Assembly (NCBI GenBank): GCA_030583825.1
Contig: CP129477.1
Span: forward strand, 960,221 to 1,024,220
Length of the DNA stretch: 64,000 nucleotides
Origin: Candidatus Dojkabacteria bacterium
GTDB lineage: Bacteria; Patescibacteriota; Dojkabacteria; GCA-002793355
Direction: 5' to 3'
Positions 83 through 58,695 of this stretch are shown in pieces. Numbering within the stretch: position 1 is the first letter of the stretch; every line of letters starts with the position of its first letter. The translations under genes and the position numbers were made by a program. Under the pieces are notes generated by a model. That model did no database searches and had not been told where the DNA came from. It worked only from the letters and a program-made list of their open reading frames with translations.

Positions 83-1294
83 TTACACCACAATATCTAA
101 AATTGATTTTACCGCTTTTACGAATATTTCTGCTTCTTCTTCAGTATTATAGAAGTACCAGGATGCACGAACGCTTCCATGAATATTATTTGCATTAAAC
201 CATGAGTGCACACAATGCTGCCCTGATCTTACAGCTATCTGATAAGTATTGTTCAAGAGTAACGAAATTTCATGGATATCTGCACCTGGAACGTAGAATG
301 AGAAAACTCCTGCTCGCTGTGTGTAATCTTGGGGGCCAATGACTTTGATTCGTGAATCGGCATATAGTCCTTCGTGAATGATCTTGCCGATTTTTAGTTC
401 TTGATCATGAATAAAGCCATAGCCAACTTTTTGTAAGTAGAGAAATGCTTCTTTTAGCGCGATGATACCGGCGTAGTCTTGAAGTCCTGCTTCAAATCGT
501 GCAGGAACACCCAGAAGCTCATAGGAATCGTAGGTTGAGGCAGCAACAGTACTTCCTCCAACATTATAAGTATCTAATTGGTCAAGAAGCTCTTTTTTTC
601 CGTAAAGGATTCCTGTTCCACTTGGGCCAAGCATTTTATGACCAGAAAGTGAGAGGAAATCTATGTCGAGTGCTCGAACATCTGCTTTTTGGTGGGGAAT
701 AAACTGTGCTCCATCAATATGAACTAGCGCTCCCTGCTGATGAGCAATCTTTACAATATTTGCAACTGGGAAAGTAACTCCGTCAACATTTGATGTAGCA
801 ACCATGCTAACAAGCCTTAAGTTTGTTGCAGTTTTTACTAATACTTCAAGCTCTGCAAGGTCAAGAGTATTGTCCTGCAACAAAGGAGTAATAAGTACAG
901 TTATACCGCGCTTTTCTTTTAGCCTAAGCCAGGGAATAAGATTGGAATTATGCTCTTTTCCTGAAACGATCACGGTGTCACCTTGTTGAAGAGATAGTCC
1001 GTTTGCAAGTATATTCATACTTTCGGTTGCATTACGTGTAAAAATGATTTCATCCGAGCTTTTTGCATTGAGGTGTTTGGCTATAACTTCTCTGGTTTCT
1101 CCTACAAGTTTAGAAACATGTTGCGCGAGATCATGATTACTCCGACCTCCACACGACGAATAATTCTCATAGTAATCGTTCATGGCAGAAATAACCTGCT
1201 GAGGACGAAGGCTCATACATGCCGTATCAAAGTACAAAAAGGGCTGTTTTCGGTTAAAAAAGGGAAAATCTTTGCGAATATCAGAGATGTTCAT
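83..1294 (-). CDS. sufS: Cysteine desulfurase, group II (SufS/CsdA-like class V aminotransferase)
   Basis: 403 aa. PLP-lysine context HK(M)LGPSGTG. C-terminal RSGQHC motif with the catalytic Cys of SufS-type desulfurases. Overall aminotransferase class V architecture. Confidence 0.85.
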   Translation of the reverse strand: MNISDIRKDFPFFNRKQPFLYFDTACMSLRPQQVISAMNDYYENYSSCGGRSNHDLAQHVSKLVGETREVIAKHLNAKSSDEIIFTRNATESMNILANGLSLQQGDTVIVSGKEHNSNLIPWLRLKEKRGITVLITPLLQDNTLDLAELEVLVKTATNLRLVSMVATSNVDGVTFPVANIVKIAHQQGALVHIDGAQFIPHQKADVRALDIDFLSLSGHKMLGPSGTGILYGKKELLDQLDTYNVGGSTVAASTYDSYELLGVPARFEAGLQDYAGIIALKEAFLYLQKVGYGFIHDQELKIGKIIHEGLYADSRIKVIGPQDYTQRAGVFSFYVPGADIHEISLLLNNTYQIAVRSGQHCVHSWFNANNIHGSVRASWYFYNTEEEAEIFVKAVKSILDIVV

Positions 1295-1481
1295 ACTCGC
1301 ATTATACTCTCATTGAGTGTGAGGTTAAAGTGAAGCAAAGTTCCAGCCCCGGTGTAGTCTTTGAAAAGTGTCCACACCGGGAAAGGAGTAATTCAGTTAT
1401 TCTTCGTTATCGGGTTCGTCATCGCCGAAAGGAGATGGAATGAAAATATTTGGGACAACTCTTTCTGTGAAAATAAAAAAA

Positions 1482-1687
1482 TGGGCGGTATTGGGCTCGG
1501 TCACCTCGCATTCTTACCTTGCCTGATAAGTATGCTCCTCGATAAGGTTACTTCGTCTTCATTGAACATCGATAAAGTAAACTTTATCTCTCGAAAAGCA
1601 AATTGTTGCTTTTCGCCCCATTCCTCTCGAAAAACGCAAGGTCACTTGCCTTTTTCTCGGGTTTCTCGCCAATGAAATATATAACAG
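1482..1687 (-). repeat. tRNA-3'-flanking conserved element, copy 1, bounded distally by an 18-nt direct repeat of the tRNA-Val 3' end
   Basis: tgggcggtattgggctcg occurs at both 1482-1499 and 1688-1705. The intervening 188 nt shares ordered sequence blocks with copy 2 at 39225-39373: ctcggtcacctcgcatt, atgctcctcga and ctcggg(t/c)ttctcg(t)cc. It also contains an A-run/hairpin/T-run module carrying compensatory changes. Confidence 0.6.
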
Positions 1688-1761
1688 TGGGCGGTATTGG
1701 GCTCGAACCAATGACCTCTTCAATGTCAATGAAGTGCTCTAGCCAGCTGAGCTAACCGCCC
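1688..1761 (-). tRNA. tRNA-Val (anticodon GAC)
   Basis: The reverse complement is GGGCGGTTAGCTCAGCTGGCTAGAGCACTTCATTGACATTGAAGAGGTCATTGGTTCGAGCCCAATACCGCCCA. It shows a canonical cloverleaf with a 7-bp acceptor stem, a GTTCGAGCC T-loop and the anticodon loop TTGACAT. Confidence 0.9.
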
Positions 1762-6668: not shown

Positions 6669-7448
6669 TTACTGTATTTTTGAGACTTTTCCGCTGCCGG
6701 ACTTTGTTATTGAAAGCGTTGGAGATCCTACATAAAAGACATCTCCGCTTCCACTACCTCTGACTTTCAAGACCTCAGAAGCGTTTATTGTTGTTTTTCC
6801 TGATCCATTAATATTTATGTCACCAACGTTTCCGCGCAGATTTCTTCCATCAAATTCACCTGCACCGGTAATTTCAATAGTTTGGGTGAATGCACTTCCA
6901 CTGGGGATGATTTTTCCGCTACCTGCGATTCTTGCTACGAGCTCTGTCGCATTTAATGTTGCAATAATAGATCCGACATTGTTAATAACCAGAGTGACAT
7001 TTGTACCATTTGGCAATTCTGCTGTAACCTCAGCTGCGCCATTGACTGAAATTCTATCTATGAATGGAGTTTTTATGAGAATTTCGATAGCTTGTCCTGC
7101 TGGGAATGAGTATGGTTTCTCTTTGCCCTGACATTCACTTGCGTAATTAATTATTAATCGTCGGTTTGCATCGGTAAGATCAATACAATCAAAAAATGCA
7201 TCATCGGCTTTGATTGTCACAGAGCTTTCCTGAGCTGTTTCAAGTTTTACTTTTGCTGGAATATCAATGTCTAATGATGTAACATTGCTAATTGCTGTAT
7301 CTTTTGTAGTAATTGTTCCTTTTTGGGTGATTTCTCCGTTTAAAGAAGACATTTGAGGTGCAAATATAAAAATTCCTGCGACGACAGCAATAACAATGCT
7401 TACAATAATCCCTACAATAGCAATTATGTGTAATGGAGAAAATTTCAT
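6669..7448 (-). CDS. Membrane-anchored putative adhesin-like protein (DUF2807/DUF4097-like beta-rich repeats)
   Basis: N-terminal TM helix followed by repetitive G-S-G-rich beta-strand segments (GSGKTTINASEV..GSGSGDVFYVGSP..SGSGKV). Confidence 0.4.
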   Translation of the reverse strand: MKFSPLHIIAIVGIIVSIVIAVVAGIFIFAPQMSSLNGEITQKGTITTKDTAISNVTSLDIDIPAKVKLETAQESSVTIKADDAFFDCIDLTDANRRLIINYASECQGKEKPYSFPAGQAIEILIKTPFIDRISVNGAAEVTAELPNGTNVTLVINNVGSIIATLNATELVARIAGSGKIIPSGSAFTQTIEITGAGEFDGRNLRGNVGDININGSGKTTINASEVLKVRGSGSGDVFYVGSPTLSITKSGSGKVSKIQ

Positions 7449-8664: not shown

Positions 8665-11070
8665 ATGAACAAGCCTCGACTTCTCATAACTGCCTCAACA
8701 TTTCCGAGGTGGGCGAATGACAAGATTCCAACGTTCATGTATGAGCTTGCACGTCAATTAACCAAAGATTACGATGTTCATGTGCTTGCACCACACTTCA
8801 AGGGCGCAAAAACTAACGAAAATATGGATGGAATTAATGTCCATCGTTTTCGTTACGGCTTTGATAGCTGGGAAATACTTGCGTATGGTGGAGGAGTCGT
8901 AAACAATCTCGAAAAAAATCCGTTTGCACTACTCTCTTTGCCACTGTATATTCTCTCTTCTTTATTTAGTCTGCTGTATTTACAGTGGAAGTATAAATTT
9001 CAGGTAATGAATATTCACTGGTTTGTTCCGATGGGTGTTCTTGCAATCCTTTTAAAGCCATTGTTAGGTAGCAAAATTGTTGTTACGTCTCATGGTGGGG
9101 ATGTCTTTGCAGTACGAAAACAGAAAGCATTATCGCTGTTTCCAATGAAGAAAATTATCTCGTATGTTATAAAGAATGCCGACCATGTGACTCTCGTAAG
9201 CTCTGGTGTTCAGGAATATCTTTCGGAAAATTTTCCAGCGTATGATCCAGGAAAAACATCGGTTGTTCCGATGGGAATTGATACAAATCAGTTTACGCCG
9301 GTAAAGCACGAGGCAACAGAAACTTCACGTATACTTTTTGTCGGCCGACTTGTTGAAAAGAAAGGGGTGAATTACCTTATTGAAGCAGCTAAAATTCTTA
9401 AAGAAAAGAACCTTTCATTTCATATTGATATTGTTGGTGATGGCCCGCTTCGTCCAGATTATGAAACACTTGCAGAAAAATTGAATGTTACGGATAACAT
9501 TACATTCCACGGATTTGTTGTTAATACAGAAGTTCCAGGATATTTACAACGTAGTTCACTATTTGCCGGGCCTTCGGTCGTTGCTAAAAGTGGAGACCAG
9601 GAAGGCTTGCCTGTCACGTTTATGGAAGCAATGGCAACAGGTATACCTGTTGTCGTTAGTGATACTCCGGGTGTTAAAGATCTTGTTACTTCTGACTATG
9701 ACGGAATTGTTGTTCCGCAGTATGATTCTGTAGCGCTCGCTGCAGGATTAGAAAAATTACTCGCAGACGCAACGTTACGTAAAACGTTCTCGGAGCGCGC
9801 AAGACAAAAAGCTCTCGCATTCGATTGGCCAAAAATTGCCGCGCAGTTTACAGAGATCTACGAAAAAGTTTCCCGACCATCTTTACTTATTGTTGCATCT
9901 ACCTTTCCGCGATGGAAAAATGACACAATCTCGAACTTTGTGTACGCTCTTGCCAAGAATTTAAGTACTACATTTAATGTTCATATTCTTGCACCACACC
10001 ATAAAGATGCAAAGACTTATGAGGTTATGGAAGGCATGCAAGTCCATCGTTTTGTATACTTTATTCCAAAATATGAACGCTTGGCATACGGAGGCGGTGC
10101 GGTAAACAATATGAAAAAATCAAGGCTAATTCCATTGCTTGTTCCGTTTTACTTGGTGAGCAATTTATTTGCAATGATTGGTTTACAGCTTAAGTACAGA
10201 TATAACATTGTAAATGTTCACTGGATTCTTCCCTCAGGTTTTCTTGCGGCGTTAATCAAACCGCTTTTCAAATTCAGGCTAGTACTGACATCCCACGGTG
10301 GAGATATTTTTGGATTAAAAGGTATGGCAGTCTGGAAAATTCTTGGACTTGAACGGTTTGCCAAGTTTATTGTTAATCGGGCACAAGCTATTACGGCTGT
10401 TTCAAGCGCGCTTGAAGAAGAAATTATTTCTATTGGTGGTATTGCAACGAAGGACAAAATTTCAGTTCTACCAATGGGAATATATGTTGATCAGTTTTAC
10501 AGACAAAATCGTAAAATGCGTCAGTTAAGCAAAAATACAAAAACAAAATTTATCTTTGTAGGACGCCATGCTCAAGAAAAATCTCTTACTACATTGCTCG
10601 ATGCCTTAAAAATCCTGAAAGAGAAGGGGTATAATTTTTCAGCAACAATAGCTGGCGATGGCCCGGAAAAGATGACATTAGAACAAAAAGCAAAAGACTT
10701 AGGAATCGCATCTGACATTGTTTTTCCAGGGTATGTGCCGAACACAGAAGTCGCTGACCTTTTTTATAAACATGATATTCTCTTAAATTGCTCAGTTCGG
10801 GAAGGATTGCCAACAGTATTTATGGAAGCAATGGCAACTGGCCTACCAATTATCGTAACGAATACGCAGGGAATTTCCGATTTAGTAGCTGATCACCGCA
10901 ATGGTCTTGTTGTTGGCATGAAAGATCCAGAAGCAATTGCAAAGGCATGTGAAGAATTGATTGAAAATGAGACACTATACAAAACTATTTCTGCAAATGC
11001 ATTAAAAACAGCGTATAAATATGATTGGAAAATTATTTCAAAGCAATATGAAGATGTTCTCCTTCCTTAA
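8665..11070 (+). CDS. Fused tandem family-1 (GT4-type, GT-B fold) glycosyltransferase with two complete GT domains
   Basis: Two homologous halves. Half one spans 1-400 (ITASTFPRW...HVLAPHFKGAK ... EGLPVTFMEAMATGIPVV). Half two spans 401-801 (IVASTFPRW...HILAPHHKDAK ... EGLPTVFMEAMATGLPII). Each half has the E-x7-E nucleotide-sugar motif. Confidence 0.8.
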   Translation: MNKPRLLITASTFPRWANDKIPTFMYELARQLTKDYDVHVLAPHFKGAKTNENMDGINVHRFRYGFDSWEILAYGGGVVNNLEKNPFALLSLPLYILSSLFSLLYLQWKYKFQVMNIHWFVPMGVLAILLKPLLGSKIVVTSHGGDVFAVRKQKALSLFPMKKIISYVIKNADHVTLVSSGVQEYLSENFPAYDPGKTSVVPMGIDTNQFTPVKHEATETSRILFVGRLVEKKGVNYLIEAAKILKEKNLSFHIDIVGDGPLRPDYETLAEKLNVTDNITFHGFVVNTEVPGYLQRSSLFAGPSVVAKSGDQEGLPVTFMEAMATGIPVVVSDTPGVKDLVTSDYDGIVVPQYDSVALAAGLEKLLADATLRKTFSERARQKALAFDWPKIAAQFTEIYEKVSRPSLLIVASTFPRWKNDTISNFVYALAKNLSTTFNVHILAPHHKDAKTYEVMEGMQVHRFVYFIPKYERLAYGGGAVNNMKKSRLIPLLVPFYLVSNLFAMIGLQLKYRYNIVNVHWILPSGFLAALIKPLFKFRLVLTSHGGDIFGLKGMAVWKILGLERFAKFIVNRAQAITAVSSALEEEIISIGGIATKDKISVLPMGIYVDQFYRQNRKMRQLSKNTKTKFIFVGRHAQEKSLTTLLDALKILKEKGYNFSATIAGDGPEKMTLEQKAKDLGIASDIVFPGYVPNTEVADLFYKHDILLNCSVREGLPTVFMEAMATGLPIIVTNTQGISDLVADHRNGLVVGMKDPEAIAKACEELIENETLYKTISANALKTAYKYDWKIISKQYEDVLLP

Positions 11071-37230: not shown

Positions 37231-37268
37231 ACTGAGGCATCTGCAGCCCCCTGCCGCACAATACTCAG

Positions 37269-37342
37269 TCGGGGAAACAGGACTCGAACCTGCGACCTCT
37301 ACTTCCCAAAAGTAGCGTTCTAGCCAACTGAACTACTCCCCG
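37269..37342 (-). tRNA. tRNA-Pro (anticodon TGG)
   Basis: The reverse complement is CGGGGAGTAGTTCAGTTGGCTAGAACGCTACTTTTGGGAAGTAGAGGTCGCAGGTTCGAGTCCTGTTTCCCCGA. Anticodon loop TTTGGGA and a GTTCGAGTC T-loop. Confidence 0.85.
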
Positions 37343-37390: not shown

Positions 37391-38494
37391 GTGATACAAT
37401 TTCTCATGTTTATTCCGACATATCATTATAATTTATTCGCCTATCTAGGGACAAAAAGAACTCCTTTGCCAAAGAATATTGCACGAGAATTTTACCTTTC
37501 CTGGGAAGATGCCCTCTGGGATTTACTAAAAGCAAAACGTATCCCCAAGGGAAGTAAAGTGCTTGTTCCGAGTTTTCACTGTTTAGACGTAATGAATAAT
37601 ATTGCTGCACATGGGTATCCATGCGAAACATATGAGGTTGATAGAAATTTCGCTACTACTCCACAGCTGGTACTTGAAGCACAGCAAAAACATAATGCGA
37701 AGGTTATTGTCGTTTTTCATACTTTAGGAATAAAAAATTCATTATTCCAAGACACTTCCTGGATAAATCAACTACCAAAAGACGTAATTATTATTGAAGA
37801 TGCTGTTCATAGGGTTATAGAGCCGTCCAGGCTTACAATTTTGGGCCAAAACCACTTTATTTTAGATAGCTTGAGAAAAGTGACACCACTGCAAGGAAGC
37901 TTTATTTACGGCCTTCCAGAGGCTTTGGACTATAAAAAAACACCGACTCAAAAAGCCTTTTGGTACCAGTTAAAAGGCGTATATTACTTTGTAAAGTTTC
38001 AATGTATGCTTTCCATTGCTGCAATATTGCAGTCACCAAAAATAGTCAAAAAGGCAGAAAAAGTACTTACAGTTCATGACGACCATATTGGAGATAATGA
38101 AATATCGGGCAGAAACTTTGGGATATTCAGCTTTTTTCAGCGATTTTTAGACTTTAAAAAGATTCGCAAGATAAAACATTATCAAGCAACACATTACGAA
38201 AACAGGCTTTTCCCAATGCTTGAGCAGAGTAAGTCGTTTTTTAGAATTACTGTTTCGGAAGAAGATAAATCTGAACTACGCGGATATCCCATTGGACTTG
38301 AAGGAGAGTTTGCAGATGAAGTATTAGCTTTTTTGAGAGAGAATGATGTTCTTTTAACCTTTCATTTGAAGGATTGCGAGTGGTGTCAAAACAAAAAAGT
38401 GATATTTCTTCCGATGGGGCCACATATAAACATGCAGCAAGTTGAATATGTCTGTAGTGTGATTGAGAAATACTGTGTTACACAAAGTTCCTAA
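37391..38494 (+). CDS. DegT/DnrJ/EryC1-like PLP-dependent sugar aminotransferase, diverged
   Basis: DegT-like spacing of VLVPSFHC, IIEDAVHRV and SLRK (candidate PLP Lys). Similarity is weak. Confidence 0.4.
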   Translation: MIQFLMFIPTYHYNLFAYLGTKRTPLPKNIAREFYLSWEDALWDLLKAKRIPKGSKVLVPSFHCLDVMNNIAAHGYPCETYEVDRNFATTPQLVLEAQQKHNAKVIVVFHTLGIKNSLFQDTSWINQLPKDVIIIEDAVHRVIEPSRLTILGQNHFILDSLRKVTPLQGSFIYGLPEALDYKKTPTQKAFWYQLKGVYYFVKFQCMLSIAAILQSPKIVKKAEKVLTVHDDHIGDNEISGRNFGIFSFFQRFLDFKKIRKIKHYQATHYENRLFPMLEQSKSFFRITVSEEDKSELRGYPIGLEGEFADEVLAFLRENDVLLTFHLKDCEWCQNKKVIFLPMGPHINMQQVEYVCSVIEKYCVTQSS

Positions 38495-38828
38495 AATACA
38501 CTTTCCAAACGTAGCCCTTATCTTCTGTTGGCGTTTGTAAGTAAAGTGTTTCCCCAACATCCAATGTTTGCTGACGGAAACCTCCTTGTGTATCAATTGT
38601 CCCTGGATAATCAACTTCACTAATCTGTACGCCAGTATTGTTAAATACTGTAATTTCATTGTTTCCAAATTCGACCCGCAACTCTCGATCAATCGAAGCA
38701 TCTCCTTCCATTTGAATCACCTGCCCATCGTCGGTGTAATGTTCTTTAATTGAAAGTACCTGCTGTGCGATGCCAGCACTGGATTTTTGCCAAAGATAGG
38801 TTTCTATTACAATAAATGCTTTTGCCAT
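38478..38828 (-). CDS. Small hypothetical protein, paralogue of 38828..39184
   Basis: Start codon overlaps the upstream stop (TAATG). Shares G/T-rich beta-like segments with its neighbour. The track ORF extends to 38858. Confidence 0.45.
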   Translation of the reverse strand: MAKAFIVIETYLWQKSSAGIAQQVLSIKEHYTDDGQVIQMEGDASIDRELRVEFGNNEITVFNNTGVQISEVDYPGTIDTQGGFRQQTLDVGETLYLQTPTEDKGYVWKVYFRNFV

Positions 38829-39184
38829 TATGACAATGAGAGTAATGTTACTTCCCAACTCGCTCCCCGCCCTTCTTCATTATACACGAACAATAATGAA
38901 TCTCTTTCTGCAATTGTGATATTTGTAAAATCCCCTTCGCCTGGACTAATTGCTTGTCCTGGAGTATCCAAGAGGTGCGGTTTCTTACTATCTGATTCAA
39001 TATGTACGGATAAAAGCCTATTCATTATTGAAATTGAAAATCGGAATTGCTCGTCGTGGAATTCAAGTATGAATCCTCCTCCATCTATGGCAAGAATTTT
39101 GTAAGGAAGTTCTGCCTTAGTAATACGGGAATTTTTATAGCTTTTTGTCCAGAGGGTTCGTGTTACTTGTAATAATGCTGACAT
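38828..39184 (-). CDS. Small hypothetical protein
   Basis: 118 aa. The start lies about 34 nt downstream, in minus sense, of the tRNA-Leu-linked element. Confidence 0.45.
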   Translation of the reverse strand: MSALLQVTRTLWTKSYKNSRITKAELPYKILAIDGGGFILEFHDEQFRFSISIMNRLLSVHIESDSKKPHLLDTPGQAISPGEGDFTNITIAERDSLLFVYNEEGRGASWEVTLLSLS

Positions 39185-39214
39185 GGATTATTGTAACATA
39201 AGAAAAAGATAATT

Positions 39215-39373
39215 AGAGGACTCGGTCACCTCGCATTATACCGAAGATTAAGGAATGCTCCTCGACCCCATCCACTCGCTTCAAACAGTAATTGTACTGT
39301 TTTTGCTCGGGCTTCTCGTCCATCATTAAACAATTAAGGGAATCCGGATAAAAATTACCCTGATTCCCTTAAT
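39215..39373 (-). repeat. tRNA-3'-flanking conserved element, copy 2, bounded distally by a 10-nt direct repeat of the tRNA-Leu 3' end
   Basis: agaggactcg occurs at both 39215-39224 and 39382-39391. The interior shares the ordered blocks of copy 1 (see 1482..1687). Confidence 0.6.
39318..39367 (-). terminator. Strong hairpin and T-run immediately 3' of tRNA-Leu
   Basis: In minus sense: TTAAGGGAATC-(17-nt loop)-GATTCCCTTAA followed by TTGTTTAATGA. Confidence 0.5.
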
Positions 39374-39457
39374 GCCGAGAAGAGGACTCGAACCTCCACA
39401 CCCTCAACGGGCACAACGACCTCAACGTTGCGTGTCTGCCATTCCACCACCTCGGCG
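39374..39457 (-). tRNA. tRNA-Leu (anticodon GAG), class II with long variable arm
   Basis: The reverse complement is GCCGAGGTGGTGGAATGGCAGACACGCAACGTTGAGGTCGTTGTGCCCGTTGAGGGTGTGGAGGTTCGAGTCCTCTTCTCGGCA. Anticodon loop TTGAGGT. Confidence 0.85.
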
Positions 39458-41427: not shown

Positions 41428-41435
41428 GCACTATT

Positions 41436-42665
41436 TTAGCACAGCTCGGTTTCCCATACCTTTGTTTTGTTACGTAGTGCTAATGCAAGAATCATCGAAT
41501 TTCTGGAAGTCCATGAGTGATTATGTCTATCTATACCGCTCAGTGTTTTTGTCGTAATGACTTCAATTGCGGGCATATCATTTTCTGCGCGTTGCTGGGC
41601 AAAGGCATTTGCTGTCTCTGTAACTTTGGCAACAGGGAATACTCCATCTTTTTGTGAAAGGATAATTGTGATCGGCGCATCTATTCGATCATTTTCCTGC
41701 TCCAGGATATTTTCAGCGCATCGGTGAGCAAGCCAAGGCATAGTTTTGTGAGGTTTAATAATCGCATCGTCGCCTACAGCGTTAACAATAATTGTTCGGT
41801 TTTCATAATCTCGAAGCACTCTTATTGTGTCCATTCCGAAGCCTGCTGCAATACCAAGAACTCGTAACCTGCGAATCCCTTGCCTTTTAGCTAGGTAATG
41901 ACGTTTATCTATCCATTCGGGGACATTTCTTTCTTCTTCGGGAATGTAGTCAAAACCTGGATAAACTCCAGCGGGACTAACAAGGTGTAATCCATTTAGA
42001 TTCATCTTTCCATTGAGCTGACCTGCTGCTCGCATAGCGATTGCTGCGCCGGCAGAAAACCCAAGCATATGAACCTCACCTGTATATTGCTCATTTTGTG
42101 CGGCCCAGCGCTCGTGAAGCATTCTTTGGTCTTGCTGCAACAGCTTTGAAACAATTTCTCCATCTGCCGAAAAAGAACCATAAAGCTGCTCATAGCGTTG
42201 CAACTGTGTTAAGTATAATGGATGCAAATGCTCGGAGTATGGATCTCTTGCAGTCATGCCGGTACTTAGCATTGACGGAATTGCCACAACTCGATAGCCA
42301 ACAGCTGCGAGAGCACAGATTTCTGCGCTTGCATTGTCTGCGCCAGCAATACCACCACCAAAAAAGTAGAGTGTTTGCTGGTTTGGATGAGGGTTAATAT
42401 TCACCTCGATTGCATCGGCATGTACCTCTCCAAATCTTGTTTTTGCAACTAGTTCATGACGCGTATGTTGGCTTTGAGGGTGTTTTTCTGGGCAAGGCTT
42501 CGCCTTTCTTGCTTCTGTAAAGGCATCATACGCCTGTTCTAAACGTTCTTCGAGTTCGACAGAAGTGAGAGTTGTATGCAGTTCAGTGGGCAATGGAGCA
42601 ATTCGGTCTGTAAGGATCTGTTCTTCAATGTCATAGTATTTTTGGTTAACTACCCGATTTTTCAT
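41436..42665 (-). CDS. Hypothetical alpha/beta-hydrolase-like protein
   Basis: GxSxG elbow (GFSAGAA) and an oxyanion-like FFGGGIAG. GC content is visibly higher than neighbouring genes. Confidence 0.35.
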   Translation of the reverse strand: MKNRVVNQKYYDIEEQILTDRIAPLPTELHTTLTSVELEERLEQAYDAFTEARKAKPCPEKHPQSQHTRHELVAKTRFGEVHADAIEVNINPHPNQQTLYFFGGGIAGADNASAEICALAAVGYRVVAIPSMLSTGMTARDPYSEHLHPLYLTQLQRYEQLYGSFSADGEIVSKLLQQDQRMLHERWAAQNEQYTGEVHMLGFSAGAAIAMRAAGQLNGKMNLNGLHLVSPAGVYPGFDYIPEEERNVPEWIDKRHYLAKRQGIRRLRVLGIAAGFGMDTIRVLRDYENRTIIVNAVGDDAIIKPHKTMPWLAHRCAENILEQENDRIDAPITIILSQKDGVFPVAKVTETANAFAQQRAENDMPAIEVITTKTLSGIDRHNHSWTSRNSMILALALRNKTKVWETELC

Positions 42666-42791
42666 TGCGAATTATACCATTTTTCGGTGTCATTTTCTAT
42701 TTGGAGTAAATAAAATAGTTAAAAGTTACTCAAAAAATGAGTTCCGTTGCGATATTGACCATAACTCGAGGTTATGATATTATCACCACAT

Positions 42792-48014: not shown

Positions 48015-49058
48015 ATGTTATGGTATACTTACGCCATGAACTCACACGCATATATTGTTCACACAGACGGAGGAGCACGGGGGAATCCAGGCCCAGCAGG
48101 AATAGGCTACACTATTCACTCACCAGACAAGGCTCTTCTCGCAGAGCACGGAGAAAAAATAGGGACAGCCACAAACAACGAAGCAGAATATAAAGCAATG
48201 ATACAAGCTCTTCGTGCATGCACTGAATTTTCTGAAATTAAAGAGCTAACCATCTATAGCGATAGCGAATTAATGGTTTCACAACTTACTGGAAAATATA
48301 AGGTCTCCTCTCCTACGATAAAAGAATTTTTCGGAATCGTGAAACAACTCGAATCGAAGTTTCACAAGGTGAGCTATATTCATGTGCGTCGCAATCTTAA
48401 CAAAAGGGCCGATGAACTGGTCAATGCAGCGCTTGATGGAAAAGCCATTTCAACACTTACAAAAACTTTACACACTGAAGAGAAAACAAATTCACTACCT
48501 GAATCGCTTCCTAAAAATGCAAATTTGATGTTTCACGGAAAACACATAGATGTCTATCAATGGCAACAGGAATTGTTCAATAAAGACTATACAATTTTTG
48601 AAAAATCAATTCATAAAGATTGTGTTTGTGTCATTACCACAACAAAGGAAGGGAAAATTTTACTCACTCACGAAGAACAACCATACCTTGGCGCCTATAT
48701 AAATATTCCTGGTGGCCGCTGCGAACAAAATGAATCCGCGGAAGAAACTGCTACTCGCGAATTACAAGAAGAAACAGGGTATACGAGCGATGATATAACG
48801 CTTTTTTACACATTTTCTCCAAAAGGAGATATTGAGTATACCTGCTCTATTTTTCTTGCGCGTAACGCTACCAAAAAAGCTGACCCAATTCTTGATCCTG
48901 GAGAGAAAATTACCGTTTTAGAGGTTTCTTTTGAAGAGTTTGTTGCAGCACTTCACACTGAAAACTTTAGAAACTTTCCTGTGCAATTGTGCATTTTTAA
49001 GCACTTAAGTGAAGAAGGTGGACAGAAAAAACTGAAATCTCTTTTAGGTCTTGCGTAA
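48015..49058 (+). CDS. RNase HI domain fused to a C-terminal Nudix hydrolase domain
   Basis: N-terminal RNase H DEDD residues (HTDGG, NNEAEY, YSDSELM, KRADELV). The C-terminus carries a perfect Nudix box, GGRCEQNESAEETATRELQEETGY. Confidence 0.75.
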   Translation: MLWYTYAMNSHAYIVHTDGGARGNPGPAGIGYTIHSPDKALLAEHGEKIGTATNNEAEYKAMIQALRACTEFSEIKELTIYSDSELMVSQLTGKYKVSSPTIKEFFGIVKQLESKFHKVSYIHVRRNLNKRADELVNAALDGKAISTLTKTLHTEEKTNSLPESLPKNANLMFHGKHIDVYQWQQELFNKDYTIFEKSIHKDCVCVITTTKEGKILLTHEEQPYLGAYINIPGGRCEQNESAEETATRELQEETGYTSDDITLFYTFSPKGDIEYTCSIFLARNATKKADPILDPGEKITVLEVSFEEFVAALHTENFRNFPVQLCIFKHLSEEGGQKKLKSLLGLA

Positions 49059-55402: not shown

Positions 55403-55468
55403 TTTGACATTGTAACACGATACTATTCATTTACGCACTGCGCCAACATGGACAAATATTTGAGATTT

Positions 55469-57756: not shown

Positions 57757-58695
57757 TTAGCTATACTTTCTTACCCTTCCCCCGCCACTTTTAATATTTC
57801 TATATTTTCTCGTTTCGCAGCCAACCCCTTCCCAATTTTCGGTGGACAAGTAAATTGGTTTGCCGTTCCAATGCAAAAGATCATTTTGGTCAATTTTTAC
57901 TTGAGGTAACATAGTGCATGTATTCACAGGATCATTATTAGGACTGAGCAACTTCATAGTTGGTGCTGATCCAGGGCCAATGGGAAATTCTTTGTATAAA
58001 TCTATGTACTCAGGAAACTGATATGCGACATCAATGAGTACTTCAGTCCAATGGAAGAAAAAGTTATAGCCAAATACTGAAATTACTTCGTTAAGTGCAT
58101 GAACCACCGATACACGTTTTTGTGAAACAAGTTTCACGGAGCAATCTTCTATAACTTGAGGAAGGTAACGAGTAAAAAATAGCTCGCGCGTAGGAAAATC
58201 ACTTTTCTGAATAACGCTGATTGGGAACACATATGCAGTTCCGTATTTTGGACGCGACATCTGCTCTAATTTTTTAAAAACCTGATCATTTTTGCTATGT
58301 GACAATGATAGTAGTCCGACATAAGAAATAGTTTCCGGGCGGCAGACCATTCTGCAAAATAACATATTAAGAAGCCATAATGTAAAATCATCTCGTAAAT
58401 GTGACAGCGTGTCATGTAAAGCAATTGTTTGCCTATCTAATTCACGGTACACATTGCAAAATCTATACTGAGAAAGAATTGGGTCAGAGGTTAAAGGGAA
58501 AGTACTTGCTTGCTTATTCTGCCAGATCCGCATTCGCTCACGAATAAAATATTGCATTTCGTTCAGAGTTACCGTATCAAGAGTTTTCTTTACTTGCTGA
58601 GTTTCTGTGTTTGTAGATTGCGCTACCGGCAAAATAGTATGATATTCCCAATGTTTGTATAGCTTTTTTAGGCGATCAGGAATTTCGTACTGCAT
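57757..58695 (-). CDS. Hypothetical protein (312 aa), conserved-looking NVYRELDR motif, function unknown
   Basis: Soluble ORF tightly packed in an operon-like array with nucleotide-processing enzymes. No family assignable from sequence. Confidence 0.4.
   Translation of the reverse strand: MQYEIPDRLKKLYKHWEYHTILPVAQSTNTETQQVKKTLDTVTLNEMQYFIRERMRIWQNKQASTFPLTSDPILSQYRFCNVYRELDRQTIALHDTLSHLRDDFTLWLLNMLFCRMVCRPETISYVGLLSLSHSKNDQVFKKLEQMSRPKYGTAYVFPISVIQKSDFPTRELFFTRYLPQVIEDCSVKLVSQKRVSVVHALNEVISVFGYNFFFHWTEVLIDVAYQFPEYIDLYKEFPIGPGSAPTMKLLSPNNDPVNTCTMLPQVKIDQNDLLHWNGKPIYLSTENWEGVGCETRKYRNIKSGGGRVRKYS

Follow-up and report, generated by a model that had tools for sequence, protein, structure and literature searches.

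Integrative elements that target tRNA genes leave the tRNA intact and are bracketed by direct repeats of its 3′ end. As Williams is said to have described in 2002, the T-loop is one of the classic crossover locations in tRNA genes. Cis-mobilizable elements (CIMEs) of this kind are kilobases long. They are defined by the absence of integration genes inside them, and their tandem accretion has been described (PMC5704250). Here we describe a small non-coding cassette that follows two tRNA genes, tRNA-Val(GAC) and tRNA-Leu(GAG), in a 64-kb stretch of a Candidatus Dojkabacteria genome, referred to at its full length as the window. Similar to CIMEs and other tRNA-targeting elements, the cassette lies beside an intact tRNA, is bracketed by direct tRNA 3′-end repeats (18, 10, 15 and 19 nt), has its junction in the T-loop, contains no integration genes and is accompanied by several tandem tRNA-end copies in a relative. 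The feature is real, unusual and narrowly distributed. It fits best among the tRNA-linked integration scars already known, as an unusual form of these and not as a new kind of system.

Unlike CIMEs, the cassette measures 105-190 bp, about the size of a single attachment site, and the same cassette sits on two different tRNAs. In addition, its tRNA-proximal part is also found in a relative without the rest, and no cognate integrase accompanies it in the 64 kb. Tandem tRNA duplicates and pseudogene fragments likewise show a partial downstream tRNA copy, weak cognate similarity on the 5′ side and a repeated trailer. In contrast to them, the cassette interrupts the copy at the same T-loop position, with the same conserved sequence, in two tRNAs, and the 3′ part of the copy is perfect whereas the remainder is nearly unrecognisable. 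Repetitive extragenic palindromes (REP), bacterial interspersed mosaic elements (BIME) and tRNA-linked terminator cassettes resemble it in being intergenic and terminator-like, with hairpins flanked by CGAG, and in one outgroup genome several tRNAs are each followed by such a hairpin. Unlike REP and BIME sequences, the cassette is linked to a tRNA 3′-end copy and holds long conserved non-palindromic blocks; only two copies are present in the 64 kb, and no REP-associated tyrosine transposase (RAYT) was seen there. The homing guides of CRISPR-associated transposons and the omega-RNAs of TnpB also combine a conserved block with a short tRNA-gene match preceded by a T-rich motif, whereas here there is no effector gene and no transposon body, the guide length is inconsistent and the scaffold is weakly structured.

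The cassette is joined to tRNA 3′ ends at T-loop position C56

Coordinates refer to the plus strand of the window; the tRNA and cassette features lie on the minus strand. At the tRNA-Val locus, which is syntenic with that of the relatives L073-L075, the sequence TGGGCGGTATTGGGCTCG occurs exactly at 1482-1499 and 1688-1705 with 188 nt between the copies, as an earlier note on this DNA had reported. On the tRNA strand the 18-nt repeat reads CGAGCCCAATACCGCCCA and equals tRNA-Val from C56 to the discriminator base A73. The probability of an 18-mer repeat arising by chance inside 400 nt is about 1e-8. The locus has the following parts.

1687-1761, minus strand: intact tRNA-Val(GAC) with its own promoter at 1772-1800 (ARAGORN; Rfam, 67 bits; promoter scan)
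1656-1686, minus strand: proximal trailer and block B1 (CGAGAAACCCGAG, 1656-1668), also present in a relative without the rest of the cassette
1630-1655, minus strand: hairpin H1, A5-GGCAAG-TGAC-CTTGCG-T5, resembling a bidirectional intrinsic terminator (terminator scan)
1616-1629, minus strand: block B2 (CGAGAGGAATGGGG; alignment of three copies)
1543-1615, minus strand: 73-nt segment found in the Val copy only, with a second A4-hairpin-T4/CGAGAG module
1500-1542, minus strand: block B3 (TCGAGGAGCAT, 1532-1542), variable spacer V (1513-1531) and block B4 (AATGCGAGGTGAC, 1500-1512)
1482-1499, minus strand: distal exact copy of tRNA-Val C56-A73, followed by a T-run
1409-1449, minus strand: degenerate second trailer and B1 (ATATTTTCATT...GGCGATGACGAACCCGAT), downstream of the distal tRNA-end copy (local and global alignments)
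1292-1328, minus strand: sufS promoter and leaderless-type start (GTATAATGCGAG TATG), with 12 nt in common with B4 of the Leu copy

The same blocks follow tRNA-Leu in the same order, in agreement with the family of conserved non-coding cassettes that the note had proposed.

39373-39456, minus strand: intact tRNA-Leu(GAG) (ARAGORN, Rfam)
39334-39372, minus strand: long hairpin immediately after tRNA-Leu, whose counterpart in the relative L080 scores as a tRNA terminator
39225-39318, minus strand: Leu copy of the cassette, with B1 at 39306-39318, hairpin H1′ at 39279-39305, B2 at 39266-39278, B3 at 39255-39265, V at 39238-39254 and B4 at 39225-39237
39215-39224, minus strand: shortened tRNA-Leu 3′-end copy, CGAGTCCTCT (10 nt, from C56 to position 65)

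The cassette thus runs from B1 through the terminator hairpin, B2, B3 and V to B4, and spans about 105 nt; in the Val copy it reaches 178 nt, and the 73-nt segment (1543-1615) of that copy is missing from the Leu copies. The block CGAGAARCCCGAG is found at 1656-1668 and 39306-39318, and B3 (TCGAGGAGCAT) at 1532-1542 and 39255-39265. The window holds two exact copies of the 17-mer AATGCGAGGTGACCGAG, at 1496-1512 and 39221-39237, where 0.11 occurrences are expected even with three mismatches. In both, the final four bases, CGAG, belong to the T-loop part of the 3′-end copy of the neighbouring tRNA. The junction GGTGAC/CGAG is identical on two different tRNAs, and the right end of the cassette, AATGCGAGGTGAC, is always joined at C56 of the tRNA-end copy. 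This is the junction that the note had placed at the T-loop CGAG. A third tRNA with the same T-loop, tRNA-Pro(TGG) at 37268-37342 (minus strand), has no cassette.

The Leu locus of L080, a relative with 82% MutL identity, is a tandem array consisting of tRNA-Leu, the terminator hairpin, a filler (filler 1), a 15-nt tRNA-end copy, a spacer of about 100 nt, the cassette and a 19-nt tRNA-end copy. Its cassette reads ATGGACGAGAAGCCCGAG, the hairpin AAAAAGGCAAGCAATCTTGCGTTTTT, TGAGCGGAGAGGGG, TCGAGGAGCAT, a 19-nt spacer and AATGCGACGTGAC; B4 differs by one mismatch, and the hairpin is nearly the same as H1 of the window Val copy. Both distal tRNA-end copies are followed by TTCTCATAAA. Filler 1 differs from the cassette and is joined at T60, not at C56. 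The terminal repeat that the note had claimed at tRNA-Leu is present in the window, but only as 10 nt. It looks truncated, because L080 has a full copy of 18-19 nt, and by that full copy the canonical repeat extends from C56 to N73.

Downstream of the Leu cassette lie two small adjacent ORFs (open reading frames; 118 aa and 116-126 aa) at 38478-39184 (minus strand), with counterparts at L080:6825-7531; no Pfam family matched them. In L080 a DUF1801-like gene on the opposite strand (L080:6392-6784) stands between the cassette and the conserved 118-aa ORF. The window lacks this gene, and probably one deletion took it away and also cut the tRNA-end copy to 10 nt.

Conservation and predicted control signals

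The conservation of the cassette is a mosaic. Across all copies the identity is 100% for B3, 92-100% for B4 and 76-95% for B1, but 21-58% for the hairpin and spacer V, with the hairpin reaching 88% between the window Val copy and L080. Over its full length, the cassette beside tRNA-Leu in L080 shares 81% identity with the window Val cassette and 62% with the window Leu cassette. The motif CGAG occurs 6-7 times per cassette, on the tRNA strand only, with 7 per 200 nt against a background of 0.475, and the two cassettes are the densest 200-nt CGAG stretches of the 64 kb; its spacing is kept as 9-31-14-31-9. B3-V-B4 forms an imperfect palindrome (GGTCG/TGACC, GCAT/ATGC) with CGAG on either side, and a helix-internal loop-helix is predicted in which these two pairings enclose a purine-rich internal loop and V lies at the apex.

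The B4 sequence is TATAAT-N5-GTG in the Leu copy of the window and TAGAAT-N5-GTG in that of L080, which is the layout of real gene starts in this DNA, and B4 has GTATAATGCGAG in common with the sufS promoter beside the Val cassette. From these motifs, B4 looks like an outward-facing promoter of the host's leaderless type. A TATAAT- or TACAAT-type box is found 5-6 nt upstream of the start codon in at least 15 substantial ORFs of the window (for example at 1292-1307, 39185-39200, 41428-41443, 55403-55419 and 42666-42681). With such a TAnnAT box 5-6 nt ahead of so many start codons, leaderless mRNAs appear to be the rule in this organism. The cassette hairpin scores as a bidirectional terminator in the terminator scan, and in the Leu copy the T-run is on the antisense strand only.

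Relatives and outgroups

The GC content is 37-41%. Only two closer relatives are on record, with SufS identities of 96% and 76% and MutL identities of 97% and 82%; the best named SufS homologues, at about 55% identity, belong to candidate division WWE3, the Patescibacteria group and Woesearchaeota. In the relatives L073-L075 (SufS 76%), tRNA-Val is followed by TTTATATTCTATTGGCGAGAAACCCGA; these relatives lack the hairpin, B3, B4 and the second tRNA end. L074 retains the tRNA-proximal trailer and the first block (CGAGAAACCCGA) as a single unit, and this trailer aligns end to end with the distal region of the window Val locus. Just past B1, L074:9890-9910 reads CCCCTCACATCTCTCG, whose reverse complement CGAGAGATGTGAGGGG resembles B2; judging from this resemblance, it may be an inverted B2 remnant.

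Within the window, the Val locus holds a first unit that runs from C56 to B4 and a second that runs from the distal copy to the sufS start; the two align colinearly, with p ~0.003 when the 18 nt are left out. The note had described a conserved 190-nt element inserted 3′ of tRNA-Val. A clean insert of 188 nt at a demonstrated empty site is not what the locus shows, because L074 keeps the trailer and B1 and because a degenerate second trailer and block follow the distal repeat; the Val locus is instead read as a repeat-insert-repeat (R-X-R, Campbell-type) or tandem-unit arrangement.

At 47-53% MutL identity, the tRNA-Leu loci of the outgroups are plain and not alignable with the window locus. 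In L082 (MutL 53%), an almost identical 32-nt terminator cassette, AGTAAAAAGGCAACTGACGYTGCGTTTTTATG, follows both tRNA-Leu and tRNA-Pro at 6859-6890 and 8930-8961, 46 and 44 nt past the respective tRNA. Its sequence is clearly related to the hairpin of the window cassette, and it represents a conserved tRNA-linked terminator repeat. In another relative (MutL 49%), a 78.5-kb contig ends exactly in the T-loop of tRNA-Leu (L097:5580-5665, …GGGGGTTCAAGT), a break of the kind that would arise if the tRNA 3′ end were duplicated or an element had integrated downstream.

Further copies, enzymes and population variants

A scan of the GTDB representative genomes, which do not include the window's own genome, with AATGCGAGGTGACCGAG gave 67 hits, all of them single chance matches in high-GC coding DNA and about the expected number. 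The exact pattern GAGGAGCAT N10-30 ATGCGAGGTGAC gave two chance coding matches in the JGI metagenomes; it was too strict, since it missed the real L080 copy with its one B4 mismatch. Three scans of IMG/VR gave chance matches only, one of the two matched loci in one scan (L096) being unread, and blastn against phages and plasmids gave no match. A protein-database search with a spurious plus-strand ORF spanning the cassette, aimed at other copies, returned nothing. A covariance model of the kind that the note had suggested, built from the three copies, detected no additional copy, not even a degenerate one, in the window and among ten loci of the same species and relatives. With no further copies in the collections scanned, mobility is therefore an inference.

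No integrase, resolvase, transposase, HUH enzyme, TnpB, IscB, Cas12, other Cas or Tn7-like gene was found in the 64 kb by Pfam searches that covered the 60 ORFs of 110 aa or more, in line with the note, which had seen no recombinase there. Among the other genes of the window, the ORF at 57757-58695 (minus strand) matches the helical domain of 5-hydroxymethyl-dU DNA kinase (PF18723, E=4e-16), a family tied to hypermodified thymidine pathways that are best known from phages. The ORF at 48015-49058 (plus strand) encodes an RNase H / RVT_3-like domain fused to a NUDIX hydrolase domain.

In four independent metagenome assemblies the Leu cassette is assembled without a break, and the sequence of the locus is the same in all of them. 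At the Val cassette, all five assemblies that come from the sufS side stop at or near B3, and the one that comes from the tRNA side stops inside the hairpin (Logan contigs L068-L072, L076 and L094; breaks within 1543-1640). Such breaks could stem from heterogeneity of the population or from one more near-identical copy at another place in the genome.

Coding and RNA tests

A protein-coding role was rejected, as the reading frames differ among copies and there is no conservation of the small ORFs that begin at B4. In Rfam only the tRNAs reach the gathering score, and nothing credible was found for the cassette at E up to 10. Hammerhead, T-box and transfer-messenger-RNA-like motifs were considered and none fits; for a T-box leader in particular, the repeat has the tRNA's own sense and not its complement, and no Rfam T-box match was found. 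A miniature inverted-repeat transposable element or insertion sequence was also rejected, since the ends are direct repeats (CGAGAAGCCCGAG vs CGAGGTGACCGAG) rather than inverted ones and the length of the tRNA-end repeats is not fixed (10 to 19 nt); only the 4-nt CGAG flanks B3-V-B4. B3 is unsuitable as a -35 element in both spacing and sequence. The TCATTGG to the left of B1 was rejected as a remnant of the tRNA-Val T-stem (local alignment, p=0.55), and a promoter remnant upstream of a putative Leu pseudogene found no support, the promoter regions being dissimilar.

Among 26 predicted pairs in the three sequences, 6 show two-sided changes, and five of these six lie in one hairpin that was swapped as a unit. 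Compared with the others, the hairpin of the window Leu copy is a compensatory replacement with the pairing kept, whereas the B3/B4 helices (helices 4 and 5) never vary across copies. The A5-hairpin-T5 architecture described in the note is thus preserved through five two-sided changes, but these amount to the replacement of one terminator hairpin, and the 'compensatory, RNA-like' pattern that it had seen does not extend to the remaining predicted helices. As the covariation is confined to one terminator hairpin, nothing here establishes a structured RNA. Folding z-scores against shuffles were -0.8 to -2.1 on both strands for cassette segments of about 90-130 nt; the values were -3.35 and -3.62 for longer sense-strand stretches that also took in the trailer, the tRNA-end copy and the tRNA-proximal hairpin. 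In the minimum-free-energy fold of L080, B2 and B1 pair with all of the tRNA-derived C61-G71, like a mimic of the acceptor/T-arm (z=-2.1), and this pairing is not reproduced in the window Val or Leu copies.

A proposed origin by recombination and its alternatives

The C56 junction on two tRNAs, the tandem array, the repeat-insert-repeat arrangement and the mosaic conservation suggest that DNA recombined at the T-loop CGAG and that the terminal blocks were under selection. The exact tRNA-end repeats, the dense CGAG motifs, the plain tRNA-Leu loci of the outgroups and the missing Rfam match also speak for such an origin. We propose as the simplest account, with the scales about evenly poised, that the cassette is a decayed or miniature non-autonomous CIME-like integrative cassette produced by such recombination, together with a tRNA terminator and an outward promoter of the leaderless type. 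Site-specific or strongly site-preferring recombination in tRNA T-loops would make a small cassette without genes. A crossover in or beside the T-loop CGAG would leave the tRNA intact and displace its old 3′ end downstream. The perfectly conserved blocks and the regular CGAG motifs would serve as protein-binding arms, while the spacer and the hairpin stem would be free to change. The two attachment-site arms would have been retained with no genes, and such units would have built up in tandem in the relative. For the cassette to move again, a recombinase would have to be supplied by another part of the genome. As side effects on the host, the hairpin would end the tRNA transcript and B4 would act as an outward promoter.

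Several observations weigh against this origin. Full copies of the cassette number three (window Val, window Leu and L080 Leu), and no integrase or other recombinase was found in the 64 kb. A clean empty site was not seen, and the trailer and B1 retained by L074 are parts that simple integration assigns to the element. A circle of 105-190 bp would be hard to recombine, and to our knowledge this size is far below that of any described CIME. A core-type binding site normally resembles the tRNA T-stem, and B4 has no likeness to the T-stem of tRNA-Val. As the four Leu assemblies are identical, no polymorphism shows mobility at that locus. In addition, parts of the cassette resemble the bodies of their cognate tRNAs (p=0.001 and 0.012), which favours an origin from a duplicated tRNA.

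Such an origin, which we consider rather unlikely, would involve tandem duplication of the tRNA, trailer, B1 and hairpin, with the second tRNA being a pseudogene split between U55 and C56 by a palindromic insert of 36-38 nt (GAGCAT-V-AATGCGAGGTGAC). The truly shared element would then be B3-V-B4 only, with CGAG duplicated on both sides, and the 18-nt repeat would be the best-kept part of the pseudogene. The colinearity of the two Val units and the recurrence of the trailer and B1 after the distal copy agree with it, as do TCGAG and CGAG, which flank B3-V-B4 exactly at the T-loop position. It also accounts for the cognate tRNA similarities better than T-loop recombination does. In a global alignment, the Val 73-nt segment weakly resembled positions 1-55 of tRNA-Val, with z=2.7 and p=0.012 (tRNA-Leu control, z=-1.0), and B1-B2 of L080 resembled the tRNA-Leu body with z=3.5 and p ~0.001 (tRNA-Val and tRNA-Pro controls not significant). 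However, the match of the two window cassettes to tRNA-Leu is marginal (p=0.015 and 0.046), the Leu-like B1-B2 module is also present at the Val locus, and filler 1 of L080 has no tRNA similarity. The perfect 18 nt at the 3′ end beside supposed 5′ parts of only about 55-60% identity are unlike neutral decay, and the upstream promoter regions are dissimilar. A small genome would also have had to undergo tandem tRNA duplication twice, independently.

A functional RNA, to which we give a low probability, could take the form of an acceptor/T-arm mimic, of a transcript launched at B4 (GUGAC followed by tRNA positions 56-73) or of an antisense transcript with 18 complementary nt that stops at the hairpin. 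The invariant B3/B4 helix-internal loop-helix with its variable apex, the pairing of C61-G71 with B2 and B1 in L080, the perfect retention of the tRNA-derived 18 nt amid diverged flanks, the B4 motif with which at least 15 real genes of the window begin alike, and the antisense T-run of the Leu hairpin would all suit one or another of these forms. On the other side stand the missing Rfam match, covariation that amounts to one hairpin replacement among otherwise invariant helices, the weak folding of the cassette segments on both strands and the small ORFs at B4, which are not conserved; moreover, the tRNA-like pairing fails in the window Val copy and is impossible in the Leu copy with its truncated end. 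Still less probable, in our judgement, is the specific proposal that cassette and tRNA 3′ end together form a lineage-specific functional RNA, a tRNA mimic via B1/B2 or a B4-launched transcript, that couples the downstream gene or its processing to the tRNA machinery, which could be RNase Z or P or the CCA-adding enzyme. Homing guides that target tRNA-adjacent sites ('delocalized crRNA') are known for CRISPR-associated transposons (PMC11656645). By its geometry, a conserved block followed in the Val copy by an 18-nt tRNA-sense match right after T54-T55 and then a T-run, the cassette might be compared to a scaffold with a 3′ guide to the tRNA gene, preceded there by GGTT; we regard this analogy as very improbable. 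No TnpB, IscB, Cas12 or Tn7-like gene is present in the 64 kb by Pfam scans, the scaffold is poorly structured, the other filler of L080 is joined at T60 rather than C56, and the window Leu copy has only 10 nt while B3 and B4 are still perfect. The likely B4 promoter would, in addition, leave the scaffold out of the transcript.

Biological significance

The cassette breaks short-read assemblies and could mislead predictors of tRNAs or genomic islands. If the RNA explanation were true, it would represent a new class of tRNA-mimicking RNA. If instead the cassettes derive from recombination at the T-loop CGAG, as we propose, they would be the smallest tRNA-linked integrative remnants described, each in essence a bare attachment site with a terminator and a promoter, in a bacterium of the candidate phyla radiation, a group whose mobile elements are poorly known. 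tRNA-Val(GAC) and tRNA-Leu(GAG) would then be integration hot spots, and the cassettes would point to a T-loop-specific recombinase in the lineage. The scars themselves would have been reused as regulatory DNA beside sufS and two small conserved genes.

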